Below are positions 11,025-27,167 of a stretch of DNA of 64,000 nucleotides, in pieces. This DNA comes from Candidatus Limnocylindria bacterium. GTDB lineage: Bacteria; Chloroflexota; Limnocylindria; QHBO01. The notes under the pieces were generated by a model. The model made no database searches, was not told the origin of the DNA, and saw only the letters and a program-made list of their open reading frames with translations. A program made the translations under genes and the position numbers. The first letter of the stretch is position 1; the number at the start of each line of letters is the position of its first letter. The stretch lies in contig JBBQGI010000001.1 in the NCBI GenBank assembly GCA_038322875.1, positions 20,372 through 84,371 of the forward strand. The letters are read 5' to 3'.

Positions 11025-11329
11025 CGGCGGGCAATCCCTGCCGCACGACCGCGCTCGGCACCGAGGTCAAGTAGGCAGGATTACATGAAGTCGGCGTACA
11101 TGTGGGGGGGTTATCCCATCTATGGGGCACCGTTCGCTTCAAGGCGCCAGACCCCGGCTAGTACTAGCTGCTTACCCGGTGGTGCCGATGCGCACCACCA
11201 AATGTCCAGCATGGCTGGCCCATTACGAGGAGGCTGTGCGCATAATCACTGGCCTACTTGCCGTCATCGTCTTGCCCCGGTCCCGGCAGCGGCGTCCGCT
11301 ACTCCCTGAGCCCACCAGGAGGCGACCCG

Positions 11330-13249
11330 ATGAAGCGAGCCCTGACTGCTCTGGCTGCTGTCGCGCTGCTAGTGGCGACCCTGCCCCCCGTGGTAGCCGA
11401 GGCTGCGACGCCTGATCCACTCGGGCAGGTCACCGAATTCACGGATGGCATGCGTATCGAGAGTTCCCCCTACATCCTCGCCCTCGGACCCGACGGCAAC
11501 ATGTGGTTCACCGAACCCAATTGGGTCGACATCGGAAAGATCACGCCAGGCGGGGTGATTACCTTATACCCGGTGAGCGGCGGCGAACCATGGGGCATCA
11601 CCGCCGGACCCGACGGCAACATGTGGTTCGCCACCGGCGAAGGGCCATCCGTTTCCAAGATCACGACGGCAGGGGTCGTGACGACCTACACCGCGGACAT
11701 CACCGCCGATAGCGGCCCATGGGGCATCGCGGCCGGACCCGACGGGAACGTGTGGTTCACCGAGCCCTGGGCCGACCAGATTGCGAAGATCACGCCCGCG
11801 GGGGTGGTTACCGAGTACGCCTCCGGGATCAGCTCAGGAGGTGGCCCGCGGGCTATCACGGCCGGACCCGACGGGAACCTGTGGTTCACCGAGGACGCCG
11901 GACGAGTAGGAAGTATCACCCCCTCTGGCCAGGTCACCGAGTACCAGACCGGCATCAGCGCGGGAGCCCGCCCCGTCAGCATCGCAGCCGGACCCGATGG
12001 GAACATGTGGTTCACTGAGTATTCGGGGGGCATCGCTAAGGTGACCCTCACGGGAGCGATCACTGAGTACACAACCGGCATCTCGCCGGGCGCAAATCCG
12101 TTTGGCATCGCGGCCGGACCCGACGGGAACGTGTGGTTTACCGAGAGCACTGGCAAGCGGATCGGCAGAATCACCTCCGGTGGTGTGATCACCGAATACT
12201 CGACCGGCATCACGCGACCGCTGTGGGATATCGCGGCCGGACCCGACGGGAACATGTGGTTCGGTGAGAGTTGGTACCCGGCCGCCACGGGCGCAATCGC
12301 GAAGATCGGGACGGCTGCGTCGAACCCGGATGCAAACGGCGACGGCATCGTCGACACCCTCCAGCCGTCGGGAACACCCCTGAATGGGTTCGCGGACGAT
12401 ACCGGCAACGGCAAGACCACGACAGGCCAGATCGTCTCGGCCGGCGGCCTTGCGATTTCGATTTCCGACGCCACAGATCCGAGTGGCGTGACCATCAGCA
12501 CCGGGAGTGGATCGGGCCAGGCGGTGCTGACGGTGTGCGCGACGGCGGGGAACCCGGCGGGCTTCGAGATCGACCTTCCGGCCAATACCACGCTGACCCT
12601 GACCTGCGGCAGTGTGACCGCTGAGGTGGCGAGCGGCGGCCCGGTCGTCATCAAGCTGCCCGGCGGCCTAGCGAGCGTCGGCGTCGATGCGGCCAGTGCG
12701 GCCACGGTGGACTCTGCGGGGAACGGCGCCTTCTCAATCATCGGGGTGAGCGGCGCGGTGACCCTGATGGTGAACGGGGTCACCCAGGCACTCACGCCCG
12801 GGGAGGACGTTGTTGGCAACAGTTGGCAGTTCGTGGGCTTCGACTCGCCAGTGAAGAACGGTGGGGCCTTCAACGCCACCAAGGCCGGTCAGACGATTCC
12901 GCTCAAGTGGCAGGTCTTCGATGCGGCAGGCAAGGCCGTCACCACCATCTCCAGCGTCAGCCTCAGCACCCAGACGGTGAGTTGTACGACTGGTGTGCCT
13001 GTCGGCGTCGTCACGCAACTTGCGGGCGCCAGTTCCGACCTGAAGAATCAGGGCAAGGGCAAGTATCACCTCAACTGGAAGACGCCCAAGGACTACGCCG
13101 GCACATGCCAGGTCCTCAGGCTCGACATCGGCGACGGCGTCATGCATGACGCCCTATTCAAGTTCCAGCCGTTCGCACGACCACCTTCGCATGACTACAT
13201 CCTCGCCGTCAGCCGTTGGTTGGATCTGCTTCTGGGTCACCGGTTCTAG
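11330..13249 (+). CDS. secreted Vgb-like (streptogramin-lyase family) beta-propeller repeat protein with extra C-terminal domain
   Basis: signal peptide MKRALTALAAVALLVATLPPVVAEA; eight repeats of ~40 aa with GPDGNxWFTE signature; ~340-aa Gly/Thr/Ser-rich C-terminal region. Confidence 0.75.
   Translation: MKRALTALAAVALLVATLPPVVAEAATPDPLGQVTEFTDGMRIESSPYILALGPDGNMWFTEPNWVDIGKITPGGVITLYPVSGGEPWGITAGPDGNMWFATGEGPSVSKITTAGVVTTYTADITADSGPWGIAAGPDGNVWFTEPWADQIAKITPAGVVTEYASGISSGGGPRAITAGPDGNLWFTEDAGRVGSITPSGQVTEYQTGISAGARPVSIAAGPDGNMWFTEYSGGIAKVTLTGAITEYTTGISPGANPFGIAAGPDGNVWFTESTGKRIGRITSGGVITEYSTGITRPLWDIAAGPDGNMWFGESWYPAATGAIAKIGTAASNPDANGDGIVDTLQPSGTPLNGFADDTGNGKTTTGQIVSAGGLAISISDATDPSGVTISTGSGSGQAVLTVCATAGNPAGFEIDLPANTTLTLTCGSVTAEVASGGPVVIKLPGGLASVGVDAASAATVDSAGNGAFSIIGVSGAVTLMVNGVTQALTPGEDVVGNSWQFVGFDSPVKNGGAFNATKAGQTIPLKWQVFDAAGKAVTTISSVSLSTQTVSCTTGVPVGVVTQLAGASSDLKNQGKGKYHLNWKTPKDYAGTCQVLRLDIGDGVMHDALFKFQPFARPPSHDYILAVSRWLDLLLGHRF
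11480..12275 (+). repeat. in-frame tandem DNA repeats (~120 bp period) encoding propeller blades
   Basis: recurring ggacccgacggcaacatgtggttcaccga motif 8 times. Confidence 0.8.
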
Positions 13250-16150: not shown

Positions 16151-16788
16151 CACGAGAAGTGCTCGACCACCGTGGCCGCAAGGGCCTCGATCCCGCGCCG
16201 GTGCACCGTCACCCGATGCGCAACGCCGCATACCTCGGGGCGGTAGAGGCCGCTCACCTTGTGCGGGAGGGGGGTCGGTGCCCAGATGACCAGCAGATCC
16301 GCCCAGGCGCAGTCCCGCAGCGCGTCTGAGCCGTTCGGCAGGTTGCTCGTGCCGTCCACGAATCGCAATTCGAAGGCCCGACCGACGATCGCTTCGATCT
16401 CCGCGTACATGGGCGGACGGCCGCCTACCACCAGGATGCGGCGGATGCCGGCAGCGGTGCAGACCAACTCCATGTGTCGCAGGGCACGCGTGTTGTTGGA
16501 GCCCGAACAGACCGAGCAGCGCGCACGTTCGACCTCGACCGGCGCGCGCCCGTCATCGACCAGCGCGGCGATGCACGTCGGATCGGCGCAGTGGCGGACC
16601 AGCGAATGCCCGATCACGTCGCGTGCCCGATCGAGCTTTTCATTGGCGATGCGGACCTTGCCCGGCCGTGTCAGGCCGGCCTCTTCCAGTGCTCTGCGGC
16701 CGGCCGCCAGGGCAGCGGTCGACCGAAATCCAACTCCCCGCAGGAGATCGGCGATCGCGGTGTCTGCCATGGCCCCATTGTCGAGCAT
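16150..16788 (-). CDS. hypothetical protein with Cys4 motif and DUF2325-like C-terminal domain
   Basis: HCADPTC...CSVCSG cysteine pairs; C-terminal VVGGRP...LLVIWAPT...H pattern; translationally coupled to M15 gene. Confidence 0.5.
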   Translation of the reverse strand: MLDNGAMADTAIADLLRGVGFRSTAALAAGRRALEEAGLTRPGKVRIANEKLDRARDVIGHSLVRHCADPTCIAALVDDGRAPVEVERARCSVCSGSNNTRALRHMELVCTAAGIRRILVVGGRPPMYAEIEAIVGRAFELRFVDGTSNLPNGSDALRDCAWADLLVIWAPTPLPHKVSGLYRPEVCGVAHRVTVHRRGIEALAATVVEHFS

Positions 16789-16841
16789 CGGCAGATCGAG
16801 GACGCGATCCAGGTCAGTGGAGGGCCTTACACTCAGCCACC

Positions 16842-18059
16842 GTGAACCTCACGACCGACGGGCGGCTCCTCTTCGCCACCCGCATCGCCCGCATGTTCGG
16901 CTACGGGCTCCTCTCCGTCGTGCTCGTCCTCTACCTCGTGGAGCTCGGCATCGACGGCGTGGCGGTTGGTCTGATCCTGACTCTCACCCTGCTCGGCGAC
17001 GCGGCGATCAGCCTGTGGCTGACCACCCACGCCGATCGGCTCGGCCGGAGGCGGATCCTGATCGCCGGCGCCGGCCTGATGCTCCTCGCCGGCATCGTCT
17101 TCGCGGTCGCGCGCGACCCCTGGATCCTCCTCATCGCCGCGACCATCGGCGTTATCAGCCCCAGCGGCAACGAGGTCGGGCCGTTCCTGGCGGTTGAGCA
17201 GGCGTCGCTCACCCAGATGCTCCCCGATCGGGAGCGGACGCGCGTCTTCGGCTGGTACAACCTCGCCGGGTCGCTGGCCACCGCCGCCGGCGCCCTCGCG
17301 GCGGGGTTCATCGCTCAGGCGCTGCTGGGCACCGGCGCCAGCGAGATCGACTCCTACCGGGCGATCGTGATCACCTATGCGCTGGTCGGGATCGTCCTGG
17401 CCGGCCTCTTCTCGCGGCTCTCGCCGGCGATCGAGGTCGCCAGCGCGCCCAGCACCTCCGTCGCCACCCGGCTGGGACTGCATCGGTCCCGCGGGATCGT
17501 GCTGCGACTGTCGGCGCTCTTCTCGCTCGATGCCTTCGCCGGCGGCTTCGTGATGCAGTCCCTGATCGCCTACTGGTTCAACCAGCGCTTCGGGGCCGAC
17601 CCGGCCACGCTTGGTGCGATCTTCTTCGGGGCGAACATCCTGGCCGGCGTCTCGGCGCTCGCCGCCGCGCGGTTGGCCGCGCGCATCGGTCTGATCAACA
17701 CCATGGTCTTCACGCACCTCCCCTCGAACGTGCTCCTGATCCTGGTGCCGCTGATGCCCACCCTGCCACTGGCGATTGGCGTCCTGCTGGCCCGGTTCGC
17801 GATCAGCCAGATGGACGTGCCGACCCGCCAGTCCTACACGATCGCGGTGGTGGAGCCCGATGAGCGCTCGGCGGCGGCCGGCGTGACCGGCATCGCTCGC
17901 AGCCTGGGGGCAGCCGTCTCCCCGTCGCTCGCCACGCCGCTCCTGCAGAGCGTGCCCCTGGCGGGTCTGCCGTTCATCATCGGTGGGGGACTGAAGATCG
18001 TGTACGACTTGCTGGTGCTGCGCGCATTCAGCGCAGTGCGCCCGCCCGAGGAGCGTTGA
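16842..18059 (+). CDS. MFS transporter
   Basis: 12 TM helices, MFS D-R-x-G-R-R loop (HADRLGRRR); GTG start chosen after divergent gene. Confidence 0.8.
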   Translation: MNLTTDGRLLFATRIARMFGYGLLSVVLVLYLVELGIDGVAVGLILTLTLLGDAAISLWLTTHADRLGRRRILIAGAGLMLLAGIVFAVARDPWILLIAATIGVISPSGNEVGPFLAVEQASLTQMLPDRERTRVFGWYNLAGSLATAAGALAAGFIAQALLGTGASEIDSYRAIVITYALVGIVLAGLFSRLSPAIEVASAPSTSVATRLGLHRSRGIVLRLSALFSLDAFAGGFVMQSLIAYWFNQRFGADPATLGAIFFGANILAGVSALAAARLAARIGLINTMVFTHLPSNVLLILVPLMPTLPLAIGVLLARFAISQMDVPTRQSYTIAVVEPDERSAAAGVTGIARSLGAAVSPSLATPLLQSVPLAGLPFIIGGGLKIVYDLLVLRAFSAVRPPEER

Positions 18060-18067
18060 CCGCACGC

Positions 18068-19156
18068 TCAGCTTTGGATCGGCGGCCCATACCAGACGCT
18101 GGCCGCGATGATGACGTACAGGCCCAGCAGCGCCAGCCCCTCGAGCCAGGTGCTCTCGCCGTCGAAGACGATCAGGGCCGCCAGGATGGCGGACAGGGCC
18201 ACCGCCCCCAGGAGCAGCGGGCTCAACACCAGCGTCAGCCCGCCGCCGATGACCAGCGAGATGAGAACCAGCACCGGCGTCAGGGCGATGGCGACCTGCA
18301 GGCTGCTGTTCAGGATCAAGCTGGCCGCCAGGTCCGCCTTGTTCCGAATCGCCATCTGCACGCCGACCACGTTCTCGACCGCGTTGCCGGCGATGGCGAC
18401 CACGACCAGTCCGACGAACGCCTCGGAGATGCGCAGGCTGGCCATGGTGGGCCGCAGCGCCTCGACGAAGAGATCCGAGGTCAGTGCAGCGCCCCCTGCG
18501 CCGAGGAACAGCACTGCCAGCGTGAGCCCCAACGGCCAGACCGATTCGGGCGCCGTCTCCTCGACCCCTGCGCTGGCACCCACGCCGCCCCCGATCGAGA
18601 AGGGGATCGAGGCCGCGAAGATGACCAGCAGCACGATCGAGACGATCACGCTCAGGTCGGTGGCGTGCCCCGCGTCGGGGGCGCCGGGGGCGGTGGCCAA
18701 GGTGGGGATCGCCAGGGCGGCAACGGCCAGCACCAGGAGGGTGGCCATGCTCCGCACCGCCGGCGCGTGGAACTGCTGGGTGCCGTGCTTCAGGCCGCCG
18801 AGGAAGAAGGCGAGCCCAAGGACGAGCAGCGTATTAGCCAGGATCGAGCCGATGAGGGCGGTCTGGACGACGACCACCAGGCCCGCCTGCAGGGCGAAGA
18901 TCGAGATGAAGAGCTCCGGCAGGTTGCCGAGCGCCGACTGCAGGATGCCGGTCGTCCGCGGCCCGAACCGATGTCCGAGCTGCTCCGTCCCACGGCCGAT
19001 CAGCACCGCCAGCCCGGCGAGGGCGGCCGCCGCCACCACGAAGACCACGGTCTGGCTGGCCCCGATGGCGTTGAGCGCAAAGGCAAGTGCCGCGGTACCG
19101 AGCGACAGGACCGCGGTGAGGGTCGTCGTGCGCCCCAGCCGAGCCAGCATCTTCAT
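18068..19156 (-). CDS. Ca2+/cation antiporter (CaCA family, ChaA/CAX-like)
   Basis: two alpha-repeat regions (GNxxE) and 11 TM topology; GGAGGAGG RBS before ATG at 19156. Confidence 0.85.
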   Translation of the reverse strand: MKMLARLGRTTTLTAVLSLGTAALAFALNAIGASQTVVFVVAAAALAGLAVLIGRGTEQLGHRFGPRTTGILQSALGNLPELFISIFALQAGLVVVVQTALIGSILANTLLVLGLAFFLGGLKHGTQQFHAPAVRSMATLLVLAVAALAIPTLATAPGAPDAGHATDLSVIVSIVLLVIFAASIPFSIGGGVGASAGVEETAPESVWPLGLTLAVLFLGAGGAALTSDLFVEALRPTMASLRISEAFVGLVVVAIAGNAVENVVGVQMAIRNKADLAASLILNSSLQVAIALTPVLVLISLVIGGGLTLVLSPLLLGAVALSAILAALIVFDGESTWLEGLALLGLYVIIAASVWYGPPIQS

Positions 19157-19301
19157 CCTCCTCCGGCAGCCCTCCGTCCTGCGGCGCTCGCAGCGGGCGA
19201 AGTGTAACGCCCAGGTTGGTCCTGTCCGCCGCTTGTGGATTGACACGGCGCCCTCGCGGGCGGCATGGTTGCCGGCCAGAACGTGGGAGATTGGGGTCGC
19301 C

Positions 19302-19997
19302 GTGCCGGACCAGGAATTCGTGACCCAGAGCCTGCGACGCTGCGCCCTCTTCGCGCATGTCGAGCCGGCTGGACTGAGCGTGCTGGCGAACGCCATGGTG
19401 CGGCGTCGCTTTCGGCGCAACGAGGTGATCTTCCACCAGGGAGATCCGGGCGACTCGCTGCACGTCGTGGCCACCGGTGCGGTGAAGATCGTGCTGCCGT
19501 CGCCGGGCGGTGACGAGGCGATCATCGCCACGCTGCAACCGGGCGACTTCTTCGGCGAGCTGGCCCTGCTCGATGGTGCGCCGCACTCGGCCACGGCGAC
19601 GGCCGTCGAACCGGTCGAGACGCTCAGTCTCGCCCGAGCCCCGTTCCATCACCTCCTCGACGAGGACCGGGGGCTGCGCATTGCGCTGCTCTCCGGCCTG
19701 GCCGCCGAGCTGCGCCGCCTCACCGGCCACGTGGAGGAGCTGCACTTCCTGGATCTTGCTGGGCGCCTCGCGATGCGCCTGGTGCGGCTCGCGCGTGAGC
19801 GGGACCCCGGCGTCGAGCACGAGGTGCGCCTCGATTGGCCGTTCACACAGACCGATCTGGCGGCTATGATCGGCGGCACACGGCAGAGCGTGAACAAGCT
19901 GCTCAGCCGACTGGTCGAGGATGGGCTTCTCGTCATCGAGCACGACACGCTGGTGATCCGCGACGTGCAGGCGCTGGCGGAACGGGCAGAGCGGTGA
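19302..19997 (+). CDS. Crp/Fnr family transcriptional regulator
   Basis: N-terminal cNMP-binding fold (FGELALLDG...A.A), C-terminal HTH (TRQSVNKLLSRLVEDGLL). Confidence 0.85.
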   Translation: MPDQEFVTQSLRRCALFAHVEPAGLSVLANAMVRRRFRRNEVIFHQGDPGDSLHVVATGAVKIVLPSPGGDEAIIATLQPGDFFGELALLDGAPHSATATAVEPVETLSLARAPFHHLLDEDRGLRIALLSGLAAELRRLTGHVEELHFLDLAGRLAMRLVRLARERDPGVEHEVRLDWPFTQTDLAAMIGGTRQSVNKLLSRLVEDGLLVIEHDTLVIRDVQALAERAER

Positions 19998-20004
19998 GGC
20001 TCGA

Positions 20005-20020
20005 TGTCGGCAAATCGACA
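20005..20020. promoter_or_regulatory. CRP-like palindromic box TGTCGgcaaatCGACA
   Basis: perfect 5-N6-5 inverted repeat with the same spacing as the TGTGA-N6-TCACA CRP site, 8 nt after the Crp-family gene stop and ~110 nt upstream of next operon. Confidence 0.4.
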
Positions 20021-20132
20021 GAAAAAGGGTCGCGGACGGGATTCTCGTTTCTGAAGGGCGGACATATCGTTCGGATCAACGACGCTCACAACCTAGATGA
20101 GCGTGGACAACCAGATCGAGAGGTTCAAGGTC

Positions 20133-20408
20133 ATGTCTGAGCAGGATCCCAAGGACACCGAGGGACATAAGAAGACCCCATCGGCTTCCGGAGACGACAC
20201 CGAGGGCCATAAGCACACCCCGTGGTCGGCGACCGACGAGGACACCGAGGGTCACAAGCACACCCCATCGGCGTCGGATGACGACACCGAGGGCCACAAG
20301 CACACCCCATCGGCGAGCGACGACGACACCGAGGGCCACAAGCACACCCCGTGGTCGGCCAGCGACGACGACGACACCGAGGGCCACAAGCACCAGCCGG
20401 ACGCGTAA
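20133..20408 (+). CDS. small acidic His-rich tandem-repeat protein (six TEGHK[HK]TP repeats)
   Basis: ORF with GAGAGG SD-like sequence; six near-identical 14-15-aa repeats; stop abuts start of GAF gene (TAAATG). Confidence 0.6.
   Translation: MSEQDPKDTEGHKKTPSASGDDTEGHKHTPWSATDEDTEGHKHTPSASDDDTEGHKHTPSASDDDTEGHKHTPWSASDDDDTEGHKHQPDA
20155..20400 (+). repeat. in-frame ~42-45 bp tandem repeats (gacaccgagggccacaagcacacccc...)
   Basis: six direct repeats visible at nucleotide level. Confidence 0.85.
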
Positions 20409-21185
20409 ATGGTCGGGGATGACCACCTGACCGCCGCGCTCACTGCCCTCAGGGCGGTGGCGCGGCGGTCTTCTGTTGCGCGCAGGCTGCAGGGCGACGC
20501 CGAGGAGCGGCTCCTGCAATCGATCGTGGATGCCACGGCCAGCCTCTTCGATGCCGAGGCCTCTTCGATCGCCCTCTTCGAGAGCGATCCGGATCGGCTC
20601 GAATTTCGCGTTGCCGCCGGAGCCCAGGGCGCCGGCGCGGTCGGCCTGCAGGTCAAGCCGACCGAGGGGATCGCCGGGTTCGTCTTCTCGACGGGTCAGG
20701 CGCTGGCGCTGACCGATGTCGCCTCGGACCCTCGCTTCGACATCCAGGCCGCGAAGAAGACCGGGTACGTCCCGCGCTCGATTGCGGCGGTTCCGCTCCT
20801 GGACGACGACGGATCGGTCGGCGTCCTCCAGGTCCTCGACAAGCGTGGATCGCCGAGCTTCTCGCTGCGCGACATGGAGCTGCTGGCGATCTTCGCCCGG
20901 CAGGCAACGACGGCGATCACCGCGACCCGCGTGCAGCGCGACACCGGCCGAATGCTCGGCGAGGTGCTCCGCCAGATCGCGGACCAGTCATTGACCGACG
21001 ATCAGGTCGAAGCCCTGGTCTCAGACGCGACGCGCGACCTCGACGACAGGCCGGAGTCGCCCTTCTGGGAGCTCGTCAACCACGTTGCCGTGCTGCGCAG
21101 CCTGGGCGAGCGCGACCTCGCGCTGGTGAGCGAGATCCTCGCAGTGGTGGCGCGGCACGCGCAGCGATCCCGTCGACGAGCGTGA
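20409..21185 (+). CDS. GAF domain protein
   Basis: single GAF fold (~150 aa) plus ~90-aa helical tail; no output domain. Confidence 0.8.
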   Translation: MVGDDHLTAALTALRAVARRSSVARRLQGDAEERLLQSIVDATASLFDAEASSIALFESDPDRLEFRVAAGAQGAGAVGLQVKPTEGIAGFVFSTGQALALTDVASDPRFDIQAAKKTGYVPRSIAAVPLLDDDGSVGVLQVLDKRGSPSFSLRDMELLAIFARQATTAITATRVQRDTGRMLGEVLRQIADQSLTDDQVEALVSDATRDLDDRPESPFWELVNHVAVLRSLGERDLALVSEILAVVARHAQRSRRRA

Positions 21186-22060
21186 GTGGCCTCGACCTTC
21201 CGGCATGGACCGAGCCGTTCACCAATGTCCCTGGTCTCGCGCGGCGGATGCGACTGCGAGGCATCTCGCGTGACTGGGCATGGGGCGGGGCGACCGGCAA
21301 GGGGGTCCGCGTCGGCATCATCGACAGCGGACTGGAGACCGATCATCCCCGCCTCGCGGGCAGGGTGGTGCAGAGCGTCGCCGCCGAGCTGACGGAGGGG
21401 GATCCTGATCCGTACATCGTGCCCGACACGAGTGGCGACCTCTACGGTCACGCCACCGCCTGCGGCGGCATCATCCTGGGACTTGCGCCCGAGGTCGAGC
21501 TGATCTCGATCCGGGTCCTCGGCGCGGACCTGCGGGGCAAGGGCACGGCCTTTGCGGCCGGCCTCGAGTGGGCGATCGAGCAGGGCATCAACGTGCTCAA
21601 CCTGAGCCTTTCGTCGAAGAGCGAGGCGCTCTTCCCCGTCTTCCACGACCTGGTCGACCGCGCCTACTTCCGCGGCGTCAACCTCGTGAGCGCGGCGAAC
21701 AACGTGCCCGCGGCGAGCTATCCGTCGCTCTTCTCATCGGTCTTCTCCGTGGCGGCTCACGGCGAGCCCGACCCGTGGCGCCTCTACTACAACCCCGCCC
21801 CGCCGGTCGAGTTCGGAGCATGGGGCGTGGACGTGCCGATCGCCTGGAAGGACGGCGGCTCGACCGTGGCGACCGGCAACAGCTTCGCCGCACCGCATGT
21901 CGCGGGCATGGTGGCGCTGATCCTGTCGAAGCACCCGGGCCTGACGCCGTTCGAGGTGAAGGCGGTCCTCGCCGCGATCGCCAACAACCCCCGGCGGGTG
22001 AATGCCCCGCAGAAGGAGGACGCTAGCTCGCTGCGTGCTCCCGGCGGTGGAGGCGCTTGA
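21182..22060 (+). CDS. S8 family subtilisin-like serine peptidase, no signal peptide (cytoplasmic)
   Basis: catalytic triad motifs GIIDSG (Asp), HATACGG (His), GNSFAAPHVAG (Ser); GTGA overlap with GAF gene. Confidence 0.9.
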   Translation: MSGLDLPAWTEPFTNVPGLARRMRLRGISRDWAWGGATGKGVRVGIIDSGLETDHPRLAGRVVQSVAAELTEGDPDPYIVPDTSGDLYGHATACGGIILGLAPEVELISIRVLGADLRGKGTAFAAGLEWAIEQGINVLNLSLSSKSEALFPVFHDLVDRAYFRGVNLVSAANNVPAASYPSLFSSVFSVAAHGEPDPWRLYYNPAPPVEFGAWGVDVPIAWKDGGSTVATGNSFAAPHVAGMVALILSKHPGLTPFEVKAVLAAIANNPRRVNAPQKEDASSLRAPGGGGA

Positions 22061-22442
22061 TCAGCGCCTTCATGATCGGCACGGCCATTTGCGGATGCTC
22101 CTTGAGGAGCGCGGTGAACTCCCAGGAGACGAAGAGGATGCACTCCGTCTCCTCGATCGCCTTGACGCTCGCCGTACGCGGATGTTCCTCGATCAGCGCC
22201 AGCTCGCCGAAGAAATCTCCGGGGTAGAGCTCGCTCGGGGTCCGATCCTGGGCGCCGTCCTTCTCCGCTTCGGCCCGACCGCGCAGGATCACGTACAGGG
22301 CCGACGCCGGATCGTCCTGCCGAATGATCCATTCTCCGGCCGCATAGGTGCGCCGCACGCCCTGCTCTGCCAGTCGCTTGATGATCCTGTCATCAAGGTC
22401 ATGCAGCAGCGGGGCCGCAGCCAGGGTCTGCTCAAGGTCCAC
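22023..22442 (-). CDS. standalone cyclic nucleotide-binding (CNB) domain protein
   Basis: FGELALIEEHPRTASVKA signature; GTG start placed downstream of tRNA; convergent with S8 gene (38-nt overlap). Confidence 0.75.
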   Translation of the reverse strand: MDLEQTLAAAPLLHDLDDRIIKRLAEQGVRRTYAAGEWIIRQDDPASALYVILRGRAEAEKDGAQDRTPSELYPGDFFGELALIEEHPRTASVKAIEETECILFVSWEFTALLKEHPQMAVPIMKALIKRLHRREHAAS

Positions 22443-22465
22443 GTTGACTCCCTCGGGTGCTTGTT

Positions 22466-22541
22466 TGGAGCGGGAGACGAGGTTCGAACTCGCGACATTC
22501 AGCTTGGAAGGCTGACGCTCTGCCAACTGAGCTACTCCCGC
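22466..22541 (-). tRNA. tRNA-Gly (anticodon TCC)
   Basis: reverse complement GCGGGAGTAGCTCAGTTGGCAGAGCGTCAGCCTTCCAAGCTGAATGTCGCGAGTTCGAACCTCGTCTCCCGCTCCA folds as cloverleaf with TCC anticodon, encoded CCA. Confidence 0.9.
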
Positions 22542-22657
22542 CCGGCTGATACACGAAGCATACCTGCTCGTCTGGCGGGGTCCGCCCAGTATCCTCTGCG
22601 CAGGTACGTGGCGCGAGTGACGATCCCCGCCCTACACTCCGCGCTCAGGAGGTGACC

Positions 22658-22720
22658 CGTGGCTGACAAGACGCCAAAGCGACCACCCAAGCCAAAGAAG
22701 CCCAAGAAGCCCAAGGTCTG
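22658..22720 (+). CDS. candidate 20-aa Lys/Pro-rich small ORF (V/MADKTPKRPPKPKKPKKPKV)
   Basis: GTG start 7 nt after AGGAGGTGA Shine-Dalgarno; lies between tRNA-Gly and pirin gene. Confidence 0.25.
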
Positions 22721-22737
22721 AGGGCCGCGCCCTCGAA

Positions 22738-23712
22738 CTAAGGAGTCGAGCCGGCCGTGAGGCCGTGGACCGGCGGGATCTGACCCATGCGCCCGGCCTG
22801 GTAGTCGGCGATCGCCTGCAGGATCTCGTCCCGCGTGTTCATCACGAACGGGCCGTAGTGAGCGATCGGCTCGCCGATCGGTCGGCCGCCGAGCAGCAGG
22901 ATCTCCAGGGTCGGTGACGGACCGGCCGGCTGCCGGTCGGCGCTGACTGCCACGTGGTCCCCGGCTCCCAGCACCGCGAGCTGTCCCTCCCCGATCGGCG
23001 CCCCCTCGGGACCGACGCGCCCGCTCCCCGCCAGGACGTAGACCAGCGCGTTGAAATCGGTTCGCCACGGCACCTCGATGCGCGCCTCGGGATGCAGCGT
23101 GGCGTGCGCATAGGCGATCGGCGTATTCGTGGCTCCCGGTCCCGCGTGGCCGTCGAGCTCGCCGGCGATGATCCGGATCAGGGCCGAGCCGTCGGTGTTG
23201 GTGATCAGCGCCACCTGGTCCGGCACGATGTCCTGGTAGCGCGGCGGGCTCCACTTCATGCTCGCCGGCAGATTCACCCACAGCTGCACGCCGTGGAACA
23301 GGCCACCTGAGCGAACGAGGTATTCGGGCGGCATCTCCGAATGGACGATCCCCGCCCCCGCCGTCATCCATTGGGTCGCGCCGTCGCTGATCGTGCCGCC
23401 GCCACCCATGCTGTCGCGGTGCTCCAGCACTCCGTCCAGCATGTAGGTGACCGTTTCGAAGCCGCGGTGCGGATGATCGGGCGCCCCCTTGGCCTCGCCC
23501 GGCGCGTATTCGACCGCTCCCATCTGGTCGAGCAGGATGAAGGGGTCGACGATCGACAGGTCGATGCCGGGGAACGGCCGACGGACCGGGAAGCCCTCGC
23601 CCTCCAGGGCCCTGATGGCGGTGATCACGCCGAGCACCGGCCGCGACGCGCTGGTGGGCGGTAGGGAGGTCAGGCGAGGGAGGGCGAGCAGATTGGCGGT
23701 GACGGCTGGCAT
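22738..23712 (-). CDS. pirin family protein (bicupin)
   Basis: conserved HPHRGFETVTYMLDG...H.D motif and overall pirin similarity. Confidence 0.9.
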   Translation of the reverse strand: MPAVTANLLALPRLTSLPPTSASRPVLGVITAIRALEGEGFPVRRPFPGIDLSIVDPFILLDQMGAVEYAPGEAKGAPDHPHRGFETVTYMLDGVLEHRDSMGGGGTISDGATQWMTAGAGIVHSEMPPEYLVRSGGLFHGVQLWVNLPASMKWSPPRYQDIVPDQVALITNTDGSALIRIIAGELDGHAGPGATNTPIAYAHATLHPEARIEVPWRTDFNALVYVLAGSGRVGPEGAPIGEGQLAVLGAGDHVAVSADRQPAGPSPTLEILLLGGRPIGEPIAHYGPFVMNTRDEILQAIADYQAGRMGQIPPVHGLTAGSTP

Positions 23713-23808: not shown

Positions 23809-24975
23809 TTGGCGGCGGGCCTGGGGCATCCTCTCGGTGAAATGCACCGCAGCACCGCCGTTGCGCGCTGGCGCACGACAGCCCTCCTTGCCTCCATCCT
23901 CGGCGCCGCCGCATCGGCCTACCTGTTGGTGGAATACGTGACGGGCCAGCCAGGCGTATGCCTGACCGGCAGCGGCTGCGACCTCGTACGGGCGAGTGCA
24001 TATGCGTATCCGTTTGGCGTTCCGACGCCGCTGTTCGGCCTCGTCTTCTACGTGATCGCGGCCTGGCTGGTGCTCCGCTCCCTGGAGGGCGCGAGCGTGC
24101 TGGGATTTCGCCCGACGACCGTGCTTCTGGGCCTCGCGTTCCTCGGCGCAGGTGCCTCGATGGTATTGACGGCCCTCGAGGCCTTCGTCATCCATGCCTT
24201 CTGCAGCTGGTGCCTGGTGCAGGCTGGGGCGAGCCTCGTCCTGCTGGCCGCAGCCGTCTTACTCGGACGAGGGCGCCCGGAGCTCCCCGAAGCCCATTCC
24301 AGCCGAACTCGTCAGCAGGCAGCCCGCGAGCTGGAGAGCGAGCGGTCGAGCCTGCATCGGACCGCGCGCGCGGTCGGCGGCATCGCCGTCATCGCGGTCG
24401 TGGCGCTGCTGGCGGTCGGCGCCACCGGAGGGCTTCCGAGCGGCTCACCCGATCCTTCGACCCTGGCCCCCGCGGGCAGCCCCCACCTCGGCAACGGTGC
24501 AGTCGAAGTGGTTGAGTTCGCCGATTTCGAGTGCCCCGGGTGCGCGTCGGTGGCGCCGGCTCTCGCCGACCTGGCGACCTCCAATGCGATGACGCTCGTC
24601 TACCGCTACTTCCCGCTCGCTTCGATCCATCCGAATGCGGAAGCCTCCGCCCGGGCGGCTGCGGCCGCGGATCGGCAGGGCGCGTTCTGGCAGATGTCGA
24701 AGGGCCTTTACGCGCAGCAATCGGCGTGGGAGGCTCTCCCGGCGACCGACGCGGATGCGTACTTCCTGGCGCTCGCCGGTGATCTCGGGCTGGATGCGGA
24801 ACGCTGGCAGGTCGATTACGCGTCGGCAGAGGTCGCACGCTCGGTCAGCACCGATCTCGCTGCGGCACAGGCCCTCGGACTTTCCGGCACGCCAACCCTC
24901 TTCATCGCCGGCAGGCAATACACCGGGGCACTGAACGAGGAAGCCATCCGAGCAGCAGTCGCCGCCGCGTCCTGA
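23809..24975 (+). CDS. vitamin K epoxide reductase (VKOR) domain fused to DsbA-like thioredoxin domain
   Basis: N-terminal 5-TM VKOR with CxxC pairs (CLTGSGC, CSWC); C-terminal periplasmic Trx fold with CPGC. Confidence 0.85.
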   Translation: MAAGLGHPLGEMHRSTAVARWRTTALLASILGAAASAYLLVEYVTGQPGVCLTGSGCDLVRASAYAYPFGVPTPLFGLVFYVIAAWLVLRSLEGASVLGFRPTTVLLGLAFLGAGASMVLTALEAFVIHAFCSWCLVQAGASLVLLAAAVLLGRGRPELPEAHSSRTRQQAARELESERSSLHRTARAVGGIAVIAVVALLAVGATGGLPSGSPDPSTLAPAGSPHLGNGAVEVVEFADFECPGCASVAPALADLATSNAMTLVYRYFPLASIHPNAEASARAAAAADRQGAFWQMSKGLYAQQSAWEALPATDADAYFLALAGDLGLDAERWQVDYASAEVARSVSTDLAAAQALGLSGTPTLFIAGRQYTGALNEEAIRAAVAAAS

Positions 24976-25067: not shown

Positions 25068-27167
25068 ATGGCTACCGCTGTGCCGCGGCCAACCGACGCG
25101 TCCCCGCTCGCCCGCCCCTGGCAGGCAGGCTCTGCCGCGGTCGCGCGCCGCTGGCAGCAAGCGGCCCTGCTGCACGATCCGTTCCTGCTCTACACCGCTG
25201 CGCTGGTCCCGGTCGCCCTGGCGGTGGCGCTGCTCTCGAAGCAGCCGCGCGACCTGCCCACTGTTGCCATACTGAGCCCGGTCGCCATCGGGCTGCAGGT
25301 CATCCTGGGTGCCATTCCGGCACGCTCCCGGCCGATGACCAAGCTCGGATGGTCCTTCCTGCGCCTTGCCGTGACCCTGCTCTACGTGGCCGGCCTGGCC
25401 GAGCTGGTCGGTGGGCCCACCCATCCCATGTTCGGCCTCTACGTGCCGGTGGTGGTGGCAGCAGCCGCGCTGGGCACCAGCCAGGCGGTGGTCATCGGTA
25501 CCGTCGCCTCCCTCATCTACCTGGCACCCGAGCTGACAATCCCGGGATCGCACGCCGATGTTGCCCTGCGGGGGATCACCCTGGCCGGGGTCAGCATCCT
25601 GGTCGCGATCGGTACGCGGCGCCTGGTGATCACGGTCGAGCAGACGTCCGACCAGCTGCGCGCGGCGATGGTCTCTGAGCGTCGGCGATCGAGTCAGATC
25701 GCCGGCATGGAGGCCGTCAGCCAGGTGCTTGTCTCCGGCGTGCCGACGGCGGAGATGCTCGACCACGCCCTGGGCGTGCTGGTCGAGGTCTTCAACTACC
25801 ACTACGTCTCGATCTACCTGGCCGATGGCGATCGGCTGGTGCTCGGCGCGCAGCGTGGCTACGAGAACCCGCGCCAGTCGTTCGACGGAACCGAGGGGGT
25901 CGTCGGGCGTGTCATGCGCGGCCACGAGCTGGCGTTCGTGCCGGATATCGGGCAGGACCCCGACTACGTCGAGGTCTACCACGAGGTGGTGAGCGAGATC
26001 TGCGCCCCCCTCGTCGACAACGGCGAGTTCCTGGGCATCCTGAACGTCGAGGCGCGCCTGCCGCTCGACCGAACCGATCGGGACCTGGTCGCCACCCTGG
26101 CGGGCCGCCTGGCGATGGTGGTCGCGCTCGGGCGCGACCGGCAGGCGCTCGGCGAGCGTGCCGCCATCCTCCGCAGCCTGAACGAATTCACCAATGCCGT
26201 CAGCGGCGAGCTGGAGATGGACCGCCTCGGCGCGGCGGTGGTGGATGCGGTCCGCACCGTGATCCCGGCCGACATCGTGGCTCTCACCGTCCTCGAGCGA
26301 GAGACCGGGCGCTACCTGCTGGCTGCGGCGACCGACGTCGACCCATCGGTCCTGGGGCGCGAGATCAAGCCGGGCGAGGGGCTCGCCGGGAGGGCGATCA
26401 GGGACCGCACCGTGGTCGTCGACGACCACTACGAGCGCAGCCATTTCCCGGCGTCCTACCGGGACGCGGTAGAGCCGGCCACGATGGTGGGTGCCGGCAT
26501 TCCGCTGACGCGCGAAGGCGTCGTGGTGGGAGCGCTGTCGATCGTGCGGCGCGATCGGGCACAGCTGTTCCGGCCGCTTGAGCACGAGGCGATGGAGCTG
26601 CTCGCGGGGCATGCCGCGCTCGCAATTTCGAACGCCTTCCTGCACGCAGAGGTCGGCCTGCTGGCCACCCACGACCCTTTGACGGGGCTCTACAACCGCC
26701 GCTACTTCGACGAGGCGCTGCGACGGGTGATCGCCACCTGGCGGCGCTCCCTGCGCGGCCAGCGGCACGTGGTTGCGGCGATCATGTTCGACCTCGACCA
26801 CTTCGGCGATTTCAACAAGCAGCACGGGCACCAGATCGGCGATGAGGTGCTGCGCACCTTCGCGGGCGTGCTGCGTCGGCGGTTCCGTGACGCCGACCTC
26901 GTGGCCCGCTTCGGGGGTGAGGAGTTCGTGGTGGTGCTCGAGGGCGCGACACGCGACGACGCCGTGCGGATCGCCGACGAGGTGCGGGCGGCGCTGGCCG
27001 ACAAGCCGGTGTTAGGCGACGATGGCGCTCGGCTGCTGGTCACGGTCTCCGCCGGCTGCGCCGAGATCGATGAGGCCGAGCCGACCGGCGAACAGCTGCT
27101 GCGGACCGCCGACGTCGCGCTCTTCATGGCCAAGCGCGCCGGGCGCAATCGGGTGGTGGCGGCCTAG
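25068..27167 (+). CDS. membrane sensor diguanylate cyclase (multi-TM + tandem GAF + GGDEF)
   Basis: N-terminal TM block, two GAF-like regions, C-terminal GGEEF motif (RFGGEEFVVVL). Confidence 0.9.
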   Translation: MATAVPRPTDASPLARPWQAGSAAVARRWQQAALLHDPFLLYTAALVPVALAVALLSKQPRDLPTVAILSPVAIGLQVILGAIPARSRPMTKLGWSFLRLAVTLLYVAGLAELVGGPTHPMFGLYVPVVVAAAALGTSQAVVIGTVASLIYLAPELTIPGSHADVALRGITLAGVSILVAIGTRRLVITVEQTSDQLRAAMVSERRRSSQIAGMEAVSQVLVSGVPTAEMLDHALGVLVEVFNYHYVSIYLADGDRLVLGAQRGYENPRQSFDGTEGVVGRVMRGHELAFVPDIGQDPDYVEVYHEVVSEICAPLVDNGEFLGILNVEARLPLDRTDRDLVATLAGRLAMVVALGRDRQALGERAAILRSLNEFTNAVSGELEMDRLGAAVVDAVRTVIPADIVALTVLERETGRYLLAAATDVDPSVLGREIKPGEGLAGRAIRDRTVVVDDHYERSHFPASYRDAVEPATMVGAGIPLTREGVVVGALSIVRRDRAQLFRPLEHEAMELLAGHAALAISNAFLHAEVGLLATHDPLTGLYNRRYFDEALRRVIATWRRSLRGQRHVVAAIMFDLDHFGDFNKQHGHQIGDEVLRTFAGVLRRRFRDADLVARFGGEEFVVVLEGATRDDAVRIADEVRAALADKPVLGDDGARLLVTVSAGCAEIDEAEPTGEQLLRTADVALFMAKRAGRNRVVAA

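Follow-up and report, generated by a model that had tools for sequence, protein, structure and literature searches.

What could bring together, on adjoining stretches of a bacterial chromosome, a Crp-family regulator, a small repetitive protein, a GAF-domain protein, a cytoplasmic subtilase and a stand-alone cNMP-binding (CNB) protein? The question is raised by a contig of Candidatus Limnocylindria bacterium, of which a stretch of 64,000 nucleotides (hereafter, the window) was analysed. The five genes, a TGTCG-N6-CGACA palindrome and a series of stop and start codons that abut or overlap were all found where a first-pass annotation had placed them, or within a few bases, and their co-arrangement is far beyond chance. 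They belong to a conserved and so-far-undescribed gene set of Limnocylindria (Chloroflexota), uncultured bacteria of soil and freshwater, whose core is a three-gene unit encoding a disordered repeat protein, a soluble GAF protein and an intracellular S8 protease. Its most likely role is the processing of peptides under the control of a signal.

The comparison set comprised 84 related loci, and since nearly all of them come from metagenome-assembled genomes of one class, Limnocylindria, the locus counts are phylogenetically non-independent. Of 80 loci, 78 have the S8 gene directly behind the GAF gene, and the other two are frameshifted assemblies; a small ORF carrying DDxEGH repeats lies ahead of the GAF gene in 63 of 69; and upstream of this triad there is a Crp orthologue in no fewer than 51 of 61. 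The first-pass annotation had named a failure of these genes to co-occur elsewhere as grounds for abandoning its proposal; the triad proved to be syntenic in essentially every related locus, and to lie beside a Crp gene in most. GAF relatives exist in 312 GTDB species genomes, with family members down to about 40% identity. Moreover, the triad is found in at least three contexts and gene orders: beside the Crp gene, between tig and clpX, or with the small ORF placed downstream in convergent orientation. Neither the motif-bearing proteins nor the GAF-S8 pair are covered by any Pfam or NCBIfam family or by any paper found, in agreement with the earlier statement that this is not a named system.

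The repeat protein, the GAF protein and the protease

The small repeat ORF (20097-20408, forward strand) would encode 103 aa from the ATG at 20097, including six DDTEGH-K(H/K)-x units; the ATG at 20133, placed behind a GAGAGG Shine-Dalgarno sequence and giving 91 aa, is the likelier start. A 42-bp unit is repeated there in 5.5 tandem copies (20154-20393). The protein had been described as His-rich; the repeat ORF is indeed present, and its histidine richness turns out to be incidental and proper to the clade of the window, the conserved feature being D-D-D-D-[T/V]-E-G-H, which occurs in all homologues of the small protein and in all syntenic ORFs. The number of copies varies freely, from two to nine per protein, and their sequence is near-invariant (over 333 copies, G 100%, H 99%, E 95%, D at -2 90%). 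Even distant branches with altered gene order retain a DDVEGH ORF, in which the motif stands once or twice.

The motifs are separated by short, fast-evolving, basic cassettes of 4 to more than 30 residues, often identical inside one protein and hypervariable between species, with 0.2% Cys and no conserved Ser/Thr/Pro pattern. Comparisons between species give a pN/pS of 0.14 in the motif core, 0.11 in the acidic run and 0.20 in an N-terminal leader, MDNYRRRPPMEGFSRPGSLGGEA, conserved in a large subclade, as against 0.85 in the cassettes, and synonymous codon variation is present at every motif position. By these substitution patterns, the motif of the repeat ORF is under strong purifying selection at the protein level. 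If the almost neutrally evolving cassettes were mere linkers, the functional unit would be the motif and not a released peptide. The last three residues of the protein include K or R in 52 of 54 cases, as if a final cut were unnecessary.

The small protein has no match in Pfam or NCBIfam, and AlphaFold2 gives it no secondary structure (pTM 0.12); being predicted as disordered, it would be accessible to a protease. Furthermore, the motif is not exclusive to it. In about 1 Mb of loci, 31 copies of D[TV]EGH lie beyond the small gene, as against two for the reversed control; they belong to members of a membrane protein family and to small, basic, helical proteins beside the module. No other D[TV]EGH protein is encoded in the 64-kb window.

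The stop codon of the small ORF abuts the start of the GAF gene (TAA-ATG, 20406-20411), and the GTG start of the S8 gene overlaps the GAF stop (GTGA, 21182-21185), an overlap of 4 bp that recurs in loci L001, L003, L087 and L088. Because of these abutting and overlapping codons, the three-gene core is probably translationally coupled.

The GAF protein (20409-21185, forward strand; 258 aa; Pfam GAF, 3.3e-18) carries its domain at approximately residues 30-170, after which comes a helical C-terminal region peculiar to the family, in which Trp220 is invariant. The family alignment displays an NKFDE-like signature, D-K...F...D-x-E, and, among solved structures, the nearest are GAF domains that bind cAMP or cGMP and a GAF domain of an HD-GYP protein; the protein may bind a cNMP. 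AlphaFold2 models the core with a pLDDT of more than 90 and the C-terminal helices with low confidence, which leaves a GAF-protease interface without structural support.

The S8 subtilase (21182-22060, forward strand; 292 aa; Pfam Peptidase_S8, 5.1e-27) has subtilisin BPN' as its best solved relative (E 2.6e-26), and all of 63 orthologues retain its catalytic Asp, His and Ser as well as the oxyanion Asn. That the operon ends in a protease devoid of a signal peptide was borne out: neither a hydrophobic N-terminus nor a signal peptide is present (maximal Kyte-Doolittle value over 11 residues, 0.81). Pfam detects no prodomain, and the N-terminus carries a conserved PAWTEPF extension. The S1 pocket region is unreadable for specificity owing to a 6-residue deletion relative to subtilisin BPN'.

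The regulator, its operator and the cNMP-linked neighbours

The Crp/FNR-family regulator (19302-19997, forward strand; 231 aa) combines a cNMP-binding barrel (Pfam cNMP_binding, 2.2e-27) with an HTH_Crp_2 domain (5.1e-16), and its best solved relatives are Mycobacterium tuberculosis CRP and Corynebacterium glutamicum GlxR (E 8e-34). Its recognition helix, TRQSVNKLL, is invariant in 57 of 59 orthologues. In the phosphate-binding cassette of the window protein, APHSAT, His replaces the usual Arg, a change common to six relatives; the missing Arg counts against a switch operated by cyclic nucleotides. In loci L085 and L088 the Crp stop codon overlaps the start of the GAF gene.

The palindrome TGTCGGCAAATCGACA (20005-20020) begins 7 bp past the Crp stop codon, between regulator and operon as had been noted. 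It is the single TGTCG-N6-CGACA match in the 64 kb, weak evidence by itself because at least one match arises in 15 of 100 shuffles. Its conservation goes further: with at most one mismatch in the arms, it is kept in 57 of 58 orthologous regions between Crp and the small ORF, the arms constant, the spacer variable and the family consensus TGTCR-N6-YGACA, which makes it a phylogenetically conserved predicted operator. Seven nucleotides beyond it, an anchored alignment of 57 loci displays high information content at a putative second half-site, GGTCG in the window (20028-20032, forward strand) and TGTCG or TGTCA in relatives. The same anchored alignment places a position-conserved TAnnnT hexamer (TAGGAT, TACCGT or TATCGT in relatives) at a putative -10 element, TATCGT, in the window (20065-20070, forward strand), from which the operator centre would lie at about -60 to -65. 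This -10 assignment is inferential because a simple sigma-70 scan gave no full consensus promoter upstream of the small ORF.

The stand-alone CNB gene (22023-22442, reverse strand; 139 aa; Pfam cNMP_binding, 1.1e-19) has a GTG start after GAGGGAG and is convergent with the S8 gene, which its 3′ end overlaps by 38 bp. The protein has a canonical phosphate-binding cassette, FGELAL-x4-PRTAS, which is conserved in eight orthologues, and its best solved relatives are the cNMP-binding domains of PKG and PKA. The convergent gene reported earlier is thus present, but as a member of the module it is restricted to the closest relatives; most other loci carry instead an MFS_3 transporter fused to a cNMP-binding domain (MFS-CNBD), which adjoins the module in 29 of the 40 loci with full flanks. 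The existence of such fusions has been mentioned in a review without a functional account (PMC10710835). A class III cyclase also occurs sometimes near the module in relatives; neither the MFS-CNBD exporter nor a cyclase was found in the 64-kb window.

Altogether, 36 of the 40 fully flanked loci contain a cNMP-type gene. These fusions and cyclases of the relatives favour the view of the first-pass annotation that the module is of the cyclic-nucleotide type; against it, the subclade with the triad between tig and clpX carries no cNMP-type gene, so that control by cyclic nucleotides would be frequent and not obligatory.

A proposed processing system and its rivals

Our preferred reading, held tentatively and drawn from sequence comparison, is that of a ligand-gated cytoplasmic subtilase that would process DDxEGH-tagged proteins, a variation on the precursor-plus-subtilase theme. 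A cyclic nucleotide or a related ligand would switch the Crp protein, which, bound to the operator, would activate the operon. The GAF protein would bind the protease and render it ligand-dependent, or would serve as its substrate adaptor. The protease would recognize DDDD[T/V]EGH and cut at or beside it, releasing many short peptides from the repeat polyprotein, and would also process other DDxEGH-bearing proteins encoded nearby; in relatives with an MFS-CNBD transporter, peptide export would come under cNMP gating. It is from synteny and motif conservation only that we infer the relation of protease and substrate. On this reading the module, specific to the Limnocylindria lineage, would have both regulatory and processing roles; we rate the explanation as a whole at somewhat less than even odds.

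Instead of a precursor, the repeat protein could be a multivalent regulator that acts on the protease as pseudo-substrate, inhibitor or decoy, which we regard as rather unlikely. Each DDDD[T/V]EGH unit would then fill the active site or the GAF adaptor, the proteins actually meant for cleavage would be the DDxEGH-tagged membrane proteins and small basic helical proteins, and the GAF ligand would release or consume the decoy. The restriction of constraint to motif, acidic run and leader, the free copy number, the motif in other proteins close to the module and an S8 enzyme deprived of the usual inhibitory prodomain all agree with such a role, for which P-gamma of PDE6, a small disordered binder of GAF and catalytic domains encountered among the structural neighbours, offers a precedent. 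Nevertheless, a substrate is the simpler reading of a disordered, motif-dense chain beside an active-type protease; the prediction contains no fold at all, let alone an inhibitor-like one, and the window holds no further tagged protein.

Metal binding by the motif array, through Asp/Glu carboxylates and the invariant His, would leave unexplained, taken alone, the obligatory GAF-S8 partnership, the Crp control and the cNMP-linked transporters, and we consider it unlikely. An ATCUN site requires a free N-terminus and a His at position 3; in one version of this proposal, a cut just before the Glu would generate an N-terminal Glu-Gly-His, and thus a Cu(II)/Ni(II) site of this type, the protease maturing or turning over a metal buffer or metallophore. 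The invariant His does lie always two residues past the Glu and behind three to five acidic residues, a second His is contributed by the cassettes in the window (EGHKH), and three EGH sites fall within one small domain of the membrane protein family. On the other hand, the Gly and the Thr/Val are as invariant as the His, which is to be expected of a recognition site more than of a set of ligands, Cys is absent, and no metal-responsive regulator adjoins the module. P-type ATPases do lie a few kb away in loci L085 and L087, one with HMA and cupredoxin domains, but this is loose synteny in one branch only.

A true RiPP pathway, with the cassettes as core peptides modified by enzymes encoded elsewhere, the motif as the recognition sequence of a leader or follower and the S8 enzyme as leader peptidase, as in cyanobactins, appears improbable. 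Although the multi-cassette layout, with its invariant flanks and hypervariable cassettes often identical within a protein, the conserved leader of the large subclade, the MFS_3 exporter of most relatives and weak matches of the protease to the QhpE and PatA/PatG models would suit it, none of cyclodehydratase, radical SAM, LanB/C/M, YcaO, MNIO or methyltransferase is conserved within the 8-kb flanks, the near-Cys-free cassettes show neither a Ser/Thr/Pro pattern nor a constant length, and both model scores fall far under their cut-offs.

Finally, that the genes share no function, being inherited synteny within a single class whose counts are not independent, with the small ORF an inconsequential low-complexity repeat, translated or not, is very hard to reconcile with the persistence of the triad across contexts and gene orders, the divergence of the GAF family, the selection on the motif, the conserved overlaps of stop and start codons and the conservation of the operator arms alone in an otherwise free intergenic region.

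Comparison with known systems

The processing system that we favour resembles cyanobactin PatE with PatA/PatG in its short precursor of several cassettes that are hypervariable between species and often uniform within a gene, with conserved recognition flanks and a dedicated S8 enzyme alongside. Unlike PatA/PatG, the protease is minimal (292 aa) and lacks a DUF or macrocyclase insert; its score with the PatA/G model is 26.5 bits, where the cut-off is 421. Unlike cyanobactin clusters, the module has no heterocyclase or other tailoring enzyme and its cassettes are essentially without Cys, while neither a GAF partner nor Crp control nor cNMP-linked transporters are known from those clusters. Among curated protease families, the best scores are those of QhpE (101.8 bits, cut-off 165) and the type VII secretion mycosins (118.6 bits, cut-off 278.75), both under the cut-offs. 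The module enzyme is small, intracellular and prodomain-less like QhpE, which trims a peptide during quinohemoprotein amine dehydrogenase maturation, but it has no QhpC or QhpD neighbours; unlike mycosins, it has no ESX genes beside it and no C-terminal membrane anchor.

The regulator shares its domain order with M. tuberculosis CRP (Rv3676) and C. glutamicum GlxR (E about 1e-33). Its operator has the 5-N6-5 inverted-repeat geometry of the CRP box, TGTGA-N6-TCACA, with half-sites TGTCG/TGTCA in place of TGTGA. In E. coli CRP, Glu181 reads the half-site position at which TGTGA differs, and the module protein has Gln there. Unlike the actinobacterial CRPs, the window protein has His at the phosphate-binding Arg, and unlike global CRPs it would be a local, operon-specific regulator. 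As regards transport, MFS-CNBD fusions adjoin the module in most relatives, whereas the window has the stand-alone CNB gene instead.

The best sequence and structure neighbours of the GAF protein are the cNMP-binding GAF domains of PDE2A, PDE5/6/10, CyaB2 and Lcd1. Unlike these domains, it stands alone, carries a novel helical tail and has a protease as putative partner; in the PDE6 GAF-P-gamma pair, a small disordered protein binds the GAF domain and controls a hydrolase.

Finally, eukaryotic polyprotein pro-hormones and yeast alpha-factor are disordered precursors of tandem units, cut by kexin or furin, which are S8-family proteases. The module presents the same combination of tandem units, disordered precursor, acidic spacers alternating with basic residues, and a subtilase, but it is bacterial and cytoplasmic, lacks a P-domain and any secretory-pathway context, and has, instead of dibasic sites, an invariant element composed of acidic residues and His.

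Organization and conservation of the module

In the window, whose G+C content is about 69%, the region of interest opens with a CaCA antiporter gene on the minus strand (18068-19156), followed on the plus strand by a Crp-family gene (19302-19997; cNMP_binding, PF00027, 2.2e-27; HTH_Crp_2, PF13545, 5.1e-16), a perfect palindrome of the form TGTCG-N6-CGACA, TGTCGGCAAATCGACA (20005-20020), a small ORF containing a 42-bp unit repeated 5.5 times (20097-20408), a GAF-domain gene whose ATG abuts the TAA of the small ORF (20409-21185; PF01590, 3.3e-18), and an S8 subtilase gene whose GTG overlaps the TGA of the GAF gene as GTGA (21182-22060; PF00082, 5.1e-27). Convergent with the latter lies a gene encoding only a cNMP-binding domain (CNB; 22023-22442, minus strand), with a GTG start behind GAGGGAG. 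The coding 3′ ends of these two genes share 38 bp (22023-22060), and nothing resembling a terminator hairpin was detected between them in the window. The five genes, the palindrome and the abutting or overlapping codons agree, also in their coordinates, with the layout proposed in the first-pass annotation, and only the start of the small ORF is refined: the likelier one is the ATG at 20133, behind a GAGAGG Shine-Dalgarno sequence with which the upstream "ERF" conservation coincides, and several close homologues start at MSDQNDPKDTEGH.

A tRNA-Gly(TCC) gene (22466-22541) shares the strand of the CNB gene and stands directly upstream of it. It is the sole Rfam match over positions 18900-22800, so this stretch shows no sign of a riboswitch or leader RNA. 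A further second-messenger gene in the neighbourhood, 3 kb downstream (25068-27167, plus strand), encodes a 699-aa protein that combines two GAF domains with a GGDEF diguanylate cyclase domain. Genes encoding a Vgb-lyase-family beta-propeller protein (11258-13249, plus), a pirin (22738-23712, minus) and a VKOR-DsbA fusion protein (23809-24975, plus) have no evident tie to the module.

A GAF-family profile built from 8 sequences detected relatives in 312 GTDB species genomes, of which the best 80 loci were fetched; nine further loci were reached via contigs encoding individual homologues (all designated L001-L089, with positions counted within the fetched locus). The names attached to the homologues are Chloroflexota or Candidatus Limnocylindria/Limnocylindrales. 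According to ORF and phmmer analysis, with denominators restricted to loci having enough flank, the S8 gene directly follows the GAF gene in 78/80 loci, the two exceptions being visibly frameshifted assemblies, and a small repeat ORF directly precedes it in 63 of 69. A Crp orthologue (270-420 bits) is directly upstream in at least 51 of 61, under an "upstream" rule that misses L085. The recurrence in other genomes of the triad of repeat ORF, GAF and S8 genes near Crp, a matter raised by the first-pass annotation, is thus confirmed. L001, L003, L087 and L088 share with the window the 4-bp overlap of GAF and S8.

The most distant branch (L085-L088), whose GAF proteins are about 40-50% identical, has the gene order Crp-GAF-S8. 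In L085 and L088, the stop codon of Crp and the start codon of GAF overlap; in L089 too, GAF is directly preceded by Crp. In this branch, a 508-aa protein annotated with both cNMP_binding and GAF (P0323, L086:7001-8527) was rejected as a true fusion; it is probably a Crp/GAF frameshift artefact of a long-read assembly, since the S8 gene of the same locus is fragmented. P-type ATPase genes occur 3-4 kb from the module in L085 (12314-14308, plus) and L087 (11657-14350, plus), one of them with an HMA domain and a weak cupredoxin match, an observation relevant only to the metal-binding reading considered below.

Among the 40 loci with full flanks, 36 carry at least one cNMP-type gene. A transporter fused to a cNMP-binding domain (MFS_3-CNBD) is found in 29 of these 40, after S8 or before Crp; the existence of such fusions is mentioned in a review without a functional account (PMC10710835). 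A class III cyclase homologue lies nearby in 9/40, and class III adenylate/guanylate cyclase genes (PF00211) divergent from Crp-GAF-S8 were located at L085:5318-6142 and L086:5154-6947, both on the minus strand. Neither transporter nor cyclase was found in the 64-kb window, where the MFS gene at 16623-18059 proved by comparison not to be an orthologue of the MFS_3-CNBD transporter.

In one subclade (L003:2494-8533, on the same contig as L015; L014, L017, L018, L022, L024 and L030), the triad is inserted between tig and clpX, with no Crp or other cNMP-type gene nearby. Since it is kept there, the triad must be regarded as the core unit, and the cNMP wiring as common but not universal. This placement hints at a link to cytoplasmic proteolysis. 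A putative clpP-like frame between tig and the triad of L003 was recognised by eye; a homology query for clpP gave no match.

The repeat protein and the DDDD[T/V]EGH motif

The small protein had been described in the first-pass annotation as a His-rich repeat protein. The repeats stand; the His richness is a peculiarity of the window's clade, as the repeat logo and the cassettes of other species differ. Built from 333 repeats out of 73 distinct syntenic small proteins, the logo reads, in percentages, D56-D72-D76-D90-[T62/V33]-E95-G100-H99, followed by a hypervariable stretch rich in K/R, and the commonest repeat spacing is 15-16 residues. The cassettes between motif copies are KHTPSAS in the window's clade, and IAKIARDQ, RAKLPGAA, TTRRGIS, GGKFQATG or basic stretches of about 25 residues in other species, frequently repeated without change inside a protein and bearing no relation from one species to the next. 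An N-terminal leader, MDNYRRRPPMEGFSRPGSLGGEA...D-x-VEGH, is common to a large subclade. In nearly every case the protein stops 4-6 residues past the last EGH, with K/R within the last three residues in 52 of 54 cases. Its composition includes 15% Asp and 0.2% Cys, AlphaFold2 gives it no secondary structure (pTM 0.12), and no family match was retrieved from Pfam or NCBIfam.

Between species, across 28 species pairs that are not independent and with uncorrected values, pN/pS is 0.14 for the D[T/V]EGH core, 0.11 for the acidic run and 0.20 for the N-terminal leader, as against 0.85 for the cassettes. Moreover, several synonymous codons are used at every motif position, with all four for Gly. The low motif values and the synonymous variation together argue that the small ORF is translated and selected as a protein, and the comparison indicates that selection acts on the motif and not on the cassettes. 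A comparison of repeats within proteins (motif 0.40, cassettes 0.56) was set aside in favour of the one between species, being blurred by the inclusion of variable acidic positions and by the homogenisation of repeats.

Furthermore, the motif is portable and is carried by other families encoded beside the module. In six-frame ORFs over about 1 Mb of loci, D[TV]EGH occurs 31 times outside the small gene, versus 2 occurrences of the reversed control HGE[TV]D. One family comprises single-pass membrane proteins with two or three D[VT]EGH-A-x sites right before the TM helix, following the pattern ...SDVEGHAF...DDTEGHAIxVxFPTAxDADxFRRNLLAAG-TM (L007:10146-11006, plus; L013:2251-3003, minus; L047:7935-8699, minus; further loci L016, L023, L025, L065, L074 and L083). 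Small proteins of a second family, DDTEGH-x-F...RERQR-x-KEARPNR, carry the motif at the N-terminus and then a basic helical tail (L019:6480-6752, L020:681-1112, L042:619-936 and L066:4953-5930, all minus; L089:5892-6200, plus). In addition, L085-L088 have a short convergent ORF with one or two DDVEGH motifs just downstream of Crp-GAF-S8. None of these other motif-bearing proteins near the module matched Pfam or NCBIfam. The 64-kb window does not encode the membrane protein; in the closest relatives, such as L007, its gene comes next after CNB, where the window has the tRNA-Gly(TCC) gene, which may therefore mark a rearrangement point.

Regulator, operator, GAF protein and protease

The Crp protein, with an N-terminal cNMP-binding barrel and a C-terminal Crp-type HTH as in CRP/FNR regulators, aligns over its full length to M. 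tuberculosis CRP, which together with GlxR is its closest solved relative. Its recognition helix, TRQSVN(K/R)LL, is invariant in 57 of 59 orthologues and presents Gln at the position of E. coli CRP Glu181, the residue that reads the operator position where TGTCG differs from TGTGA. The phosphate-binding-cassette Arg (Arg82 in E. coli) is required for cAMP binding. This Arg is present in most orthologues (PRSAT or RSTTAT) and replaced by His in seven, namely the window copy (FGELALLDGAPHSAT, APHSAT, residues ~88-93) and six close relatives, which makes the effector of the window's Crp uncertain. In turn, the CNB protein has a canonical cassette, PRTAS, and its gene is confined to the closest relatives. 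The restriction to close relatives, seen for each of the two traits separately, raises the possibility that cNMP sensing moved from Crp to CNB in this clade.

Taken alone, TGTCG-N6-CGACA is a weak signal, matched at least once in 15/100 shuffles of the window. Across loci, TGTCR-N6-YGACA with at most one arm mismatch lies a few bases past the Crp stop codon in 57/58 loci with Crp upstream, the arms being constant and the six spacer bases free to vary. The CRP-type palindrome that the first-pass annotation had placed between the regulator gene and the triad can thus be read, from its conservation, as the phylogenetic footprint of a real operator. A second half-site, TGTC(G/A), follows 7 nt after the palindrome, and, counted from the palindrome centre, the aligned loci have a TAnnnT hexamer about 52 nt further on. 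The 5-N6-5 geometry is that of CRP/FNR operators, and the site lies near a putative promoter; binding of Crp to it is predicted. No consensus sigma-70 promoter was detected in the intergenic region, the only match of the scan being inside the Crp gene. Judged by the putative -10 element, the operator is at about -60 to -65, a position that suggests activation.

The GAF core is modelled confidently by AlphaFold2 (pLDDT >90), and is followed by low-confidence helices holding an invariant Trp. Its best sequence and structure neighbours are the cAMP- or cGMP-binding GAF domains of PDE2A, CyaB2, Lcd1, PDE10A and PDE6, as well as an HD-GYP GAF domain, with a Foldseek probability of 1.00 to those of PDE2A, CyaB2 and Lcd1. 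The family alignment displays an invariant or nearly invariant D144-K/R...F151...D155-x-E, an NKFDE-like signature with Asn replaced by Asp. Roles as a free Met-sulfoxide reductase or as a haem or bilin binder were rejected, because the protein has no Cys.

The S8 protein conserves Asp, His and Ser in subtilisin order and the oxyanion Asn (D48, H90, S234 and the N173 region). None of these residues varies across 63 orthologues, and the same holds for an N-terminal PAWTEPF extension. Peptidase_S8 is the sole domain detected, with no prodomain, I9 included. In agreement with the first-pass annotation, the protease appears to lack a signal peptide: no hydrophobic N-terminus is present, the first 45 residues being hydrophilic (Kyte-Doolittle maximum 0.81). 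The nearest solved relative is subtilisin BPN′, and reading cleavage specificity from their alignment was abandoned because the S1-pocket loop carries a 6-residue deletion.

Possible mechanism and comparison with known systems

From the conserved module, its operator, the selected motif and the intact protease residues, a mechanism may be proposed. Crp, whose effector is uncertain in the case of the His variant, would bind the operator at about -60 to -65, as placed by the putative -10 element, and activate transcription. GAF and S8 would be produced at a constant ratio and work jointly, GAF giving ligand dependence or delivering the substrate. S8 would recognise DDDD[T/V]EGH and, at this motif or close to it, cut the disordered polyprotein and further proteins that bear the tag; the resulting peptides would act intracellularly or leave via the MFS-CNBD transporter where present. 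As a whole, this chain is a tentative reading, whose chances we put somewhat short of even. An elaborated form is doubtful, namely a bacterial processing of pro-hormone type, in which a cNMP would switch Crp transcription, license GAF-subtilase cutting at each DDDD[T/V]EGH and open the MFS-CNBD exporter, releasing species-specific short peptides, possibly metal binders of the Glu-Gly-His (ATCUN) type, as signals, metallophores or antimicrobials.

Among the alternatives, the motif array might be a decoy or pseudo-substrate, in keeping with the nearly neutral evolution of the cassettes; this we consider unlikely. It might instead bind metal, which appears rather improbable, candidate binding peptides being DDDDTEGHKHTPSAS, and EGHKHTPSASDDDDT with a free N-terminus. 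An N-terminal Glu-Gly-His is a Cu/Ni site under the ATCUN rule, and an attractive variant is that a cut before Glu would expose precisely such a site. A complete RiPP pathway, whose tailoring enzymes would lie elsewhere in the genome, would agree with the precursor-like combination of invariant motif, variable cassettes and a leader conserved in one subclade; over flanks of up to 8 kb around the triad in 84 loci, Pfam lists and homology tallies gave no conserved RiPP modification enzyme, and we regard this option as quite improbable. Mere synteny with no joint function is scarcely credible: the triad persists across three distinct contexts and gene orders, which contradicts this reading.

Limnocylindria are uncultured Chloroflexota that abound in soils and fresh waters, and to our knowledge hardly any of their biology has been put to the test. 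Judged by the GAF relatives in 312 GTDB species, the module is spread over hundreds of species-level genomes, with a very sharp signature: an eight-residue motif, 95-100% conserved at three positions over 333 copies, and a defined set of partners. Independently of whether the peptide idea holds, TGTCR-N6-YGACA together with the helix TRQSVNK provides a clean, testable regulon marker for the class. Should the mechanism of tagged cleavage be true, it would supply a new protease recognition tag and a site-specific intracellular subtilase, of biotechnological interest, a first functional context for the GAF-protease pairing and for MFS-CNBD transporters, and a directly testable case of second-messenger control of bacterial peptide production; if the pro-hormone-like form is true, DDxEGH would be a new portable processing tag, which a dedicated protease would read in several protein families.

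The first-pass annotation had considered the module not to be a named system, and indeed no curated family, defence-system model or paper was found for it. In PADLOC, matches are to generic domains only, which speaks against a known anti-phage defence system: the cNMP-binding domains match Pycsar effectors, S8 matches the "subtilase" model (75.8 bits), and the GAF and repeat proteins have no match. The literature searched yielded nothing relevant on the motif, the GAF-subtilisin pairing, Limnocylindria RiPPs or a cNMP-linked bacteriocin transport family.

In protease sequence, the nearest systems are QhpE and the mycosins, although membership fails on both curated score and genomic context: S8 scores 101.8 bits against QhpE (NF049966, cut-off 165), with no qhpC/qhpD neighbours in the window or related loci, and 118.6 bits against mycosin (TIGR03921, cut-off 278.75), with no ESX genes in the flanks and no hydrophobic C-terminal segment. 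In architecture, the nearest analogues are cyanobactin precursors with PatA/PatG and the eukaryotic polyprotein pro-hormones with kexin. S8 itself is neither a PatA/PatG protease (TIGR03895, 26.5 bits, cut-off 421; no YcaO/PatD-like gene in the flanks examined) nor a kexin/furin convertase, having no P-domain and only 292 aa, with an invariant motif that is acidic and His-bearing, not dibasic. The module is a variant of the theme of a precursor with its dedicated subtilase, distinguished by a new portable motif, a GAF partner, a dedicated Crp-operator pair and cNMP-linked transporters.
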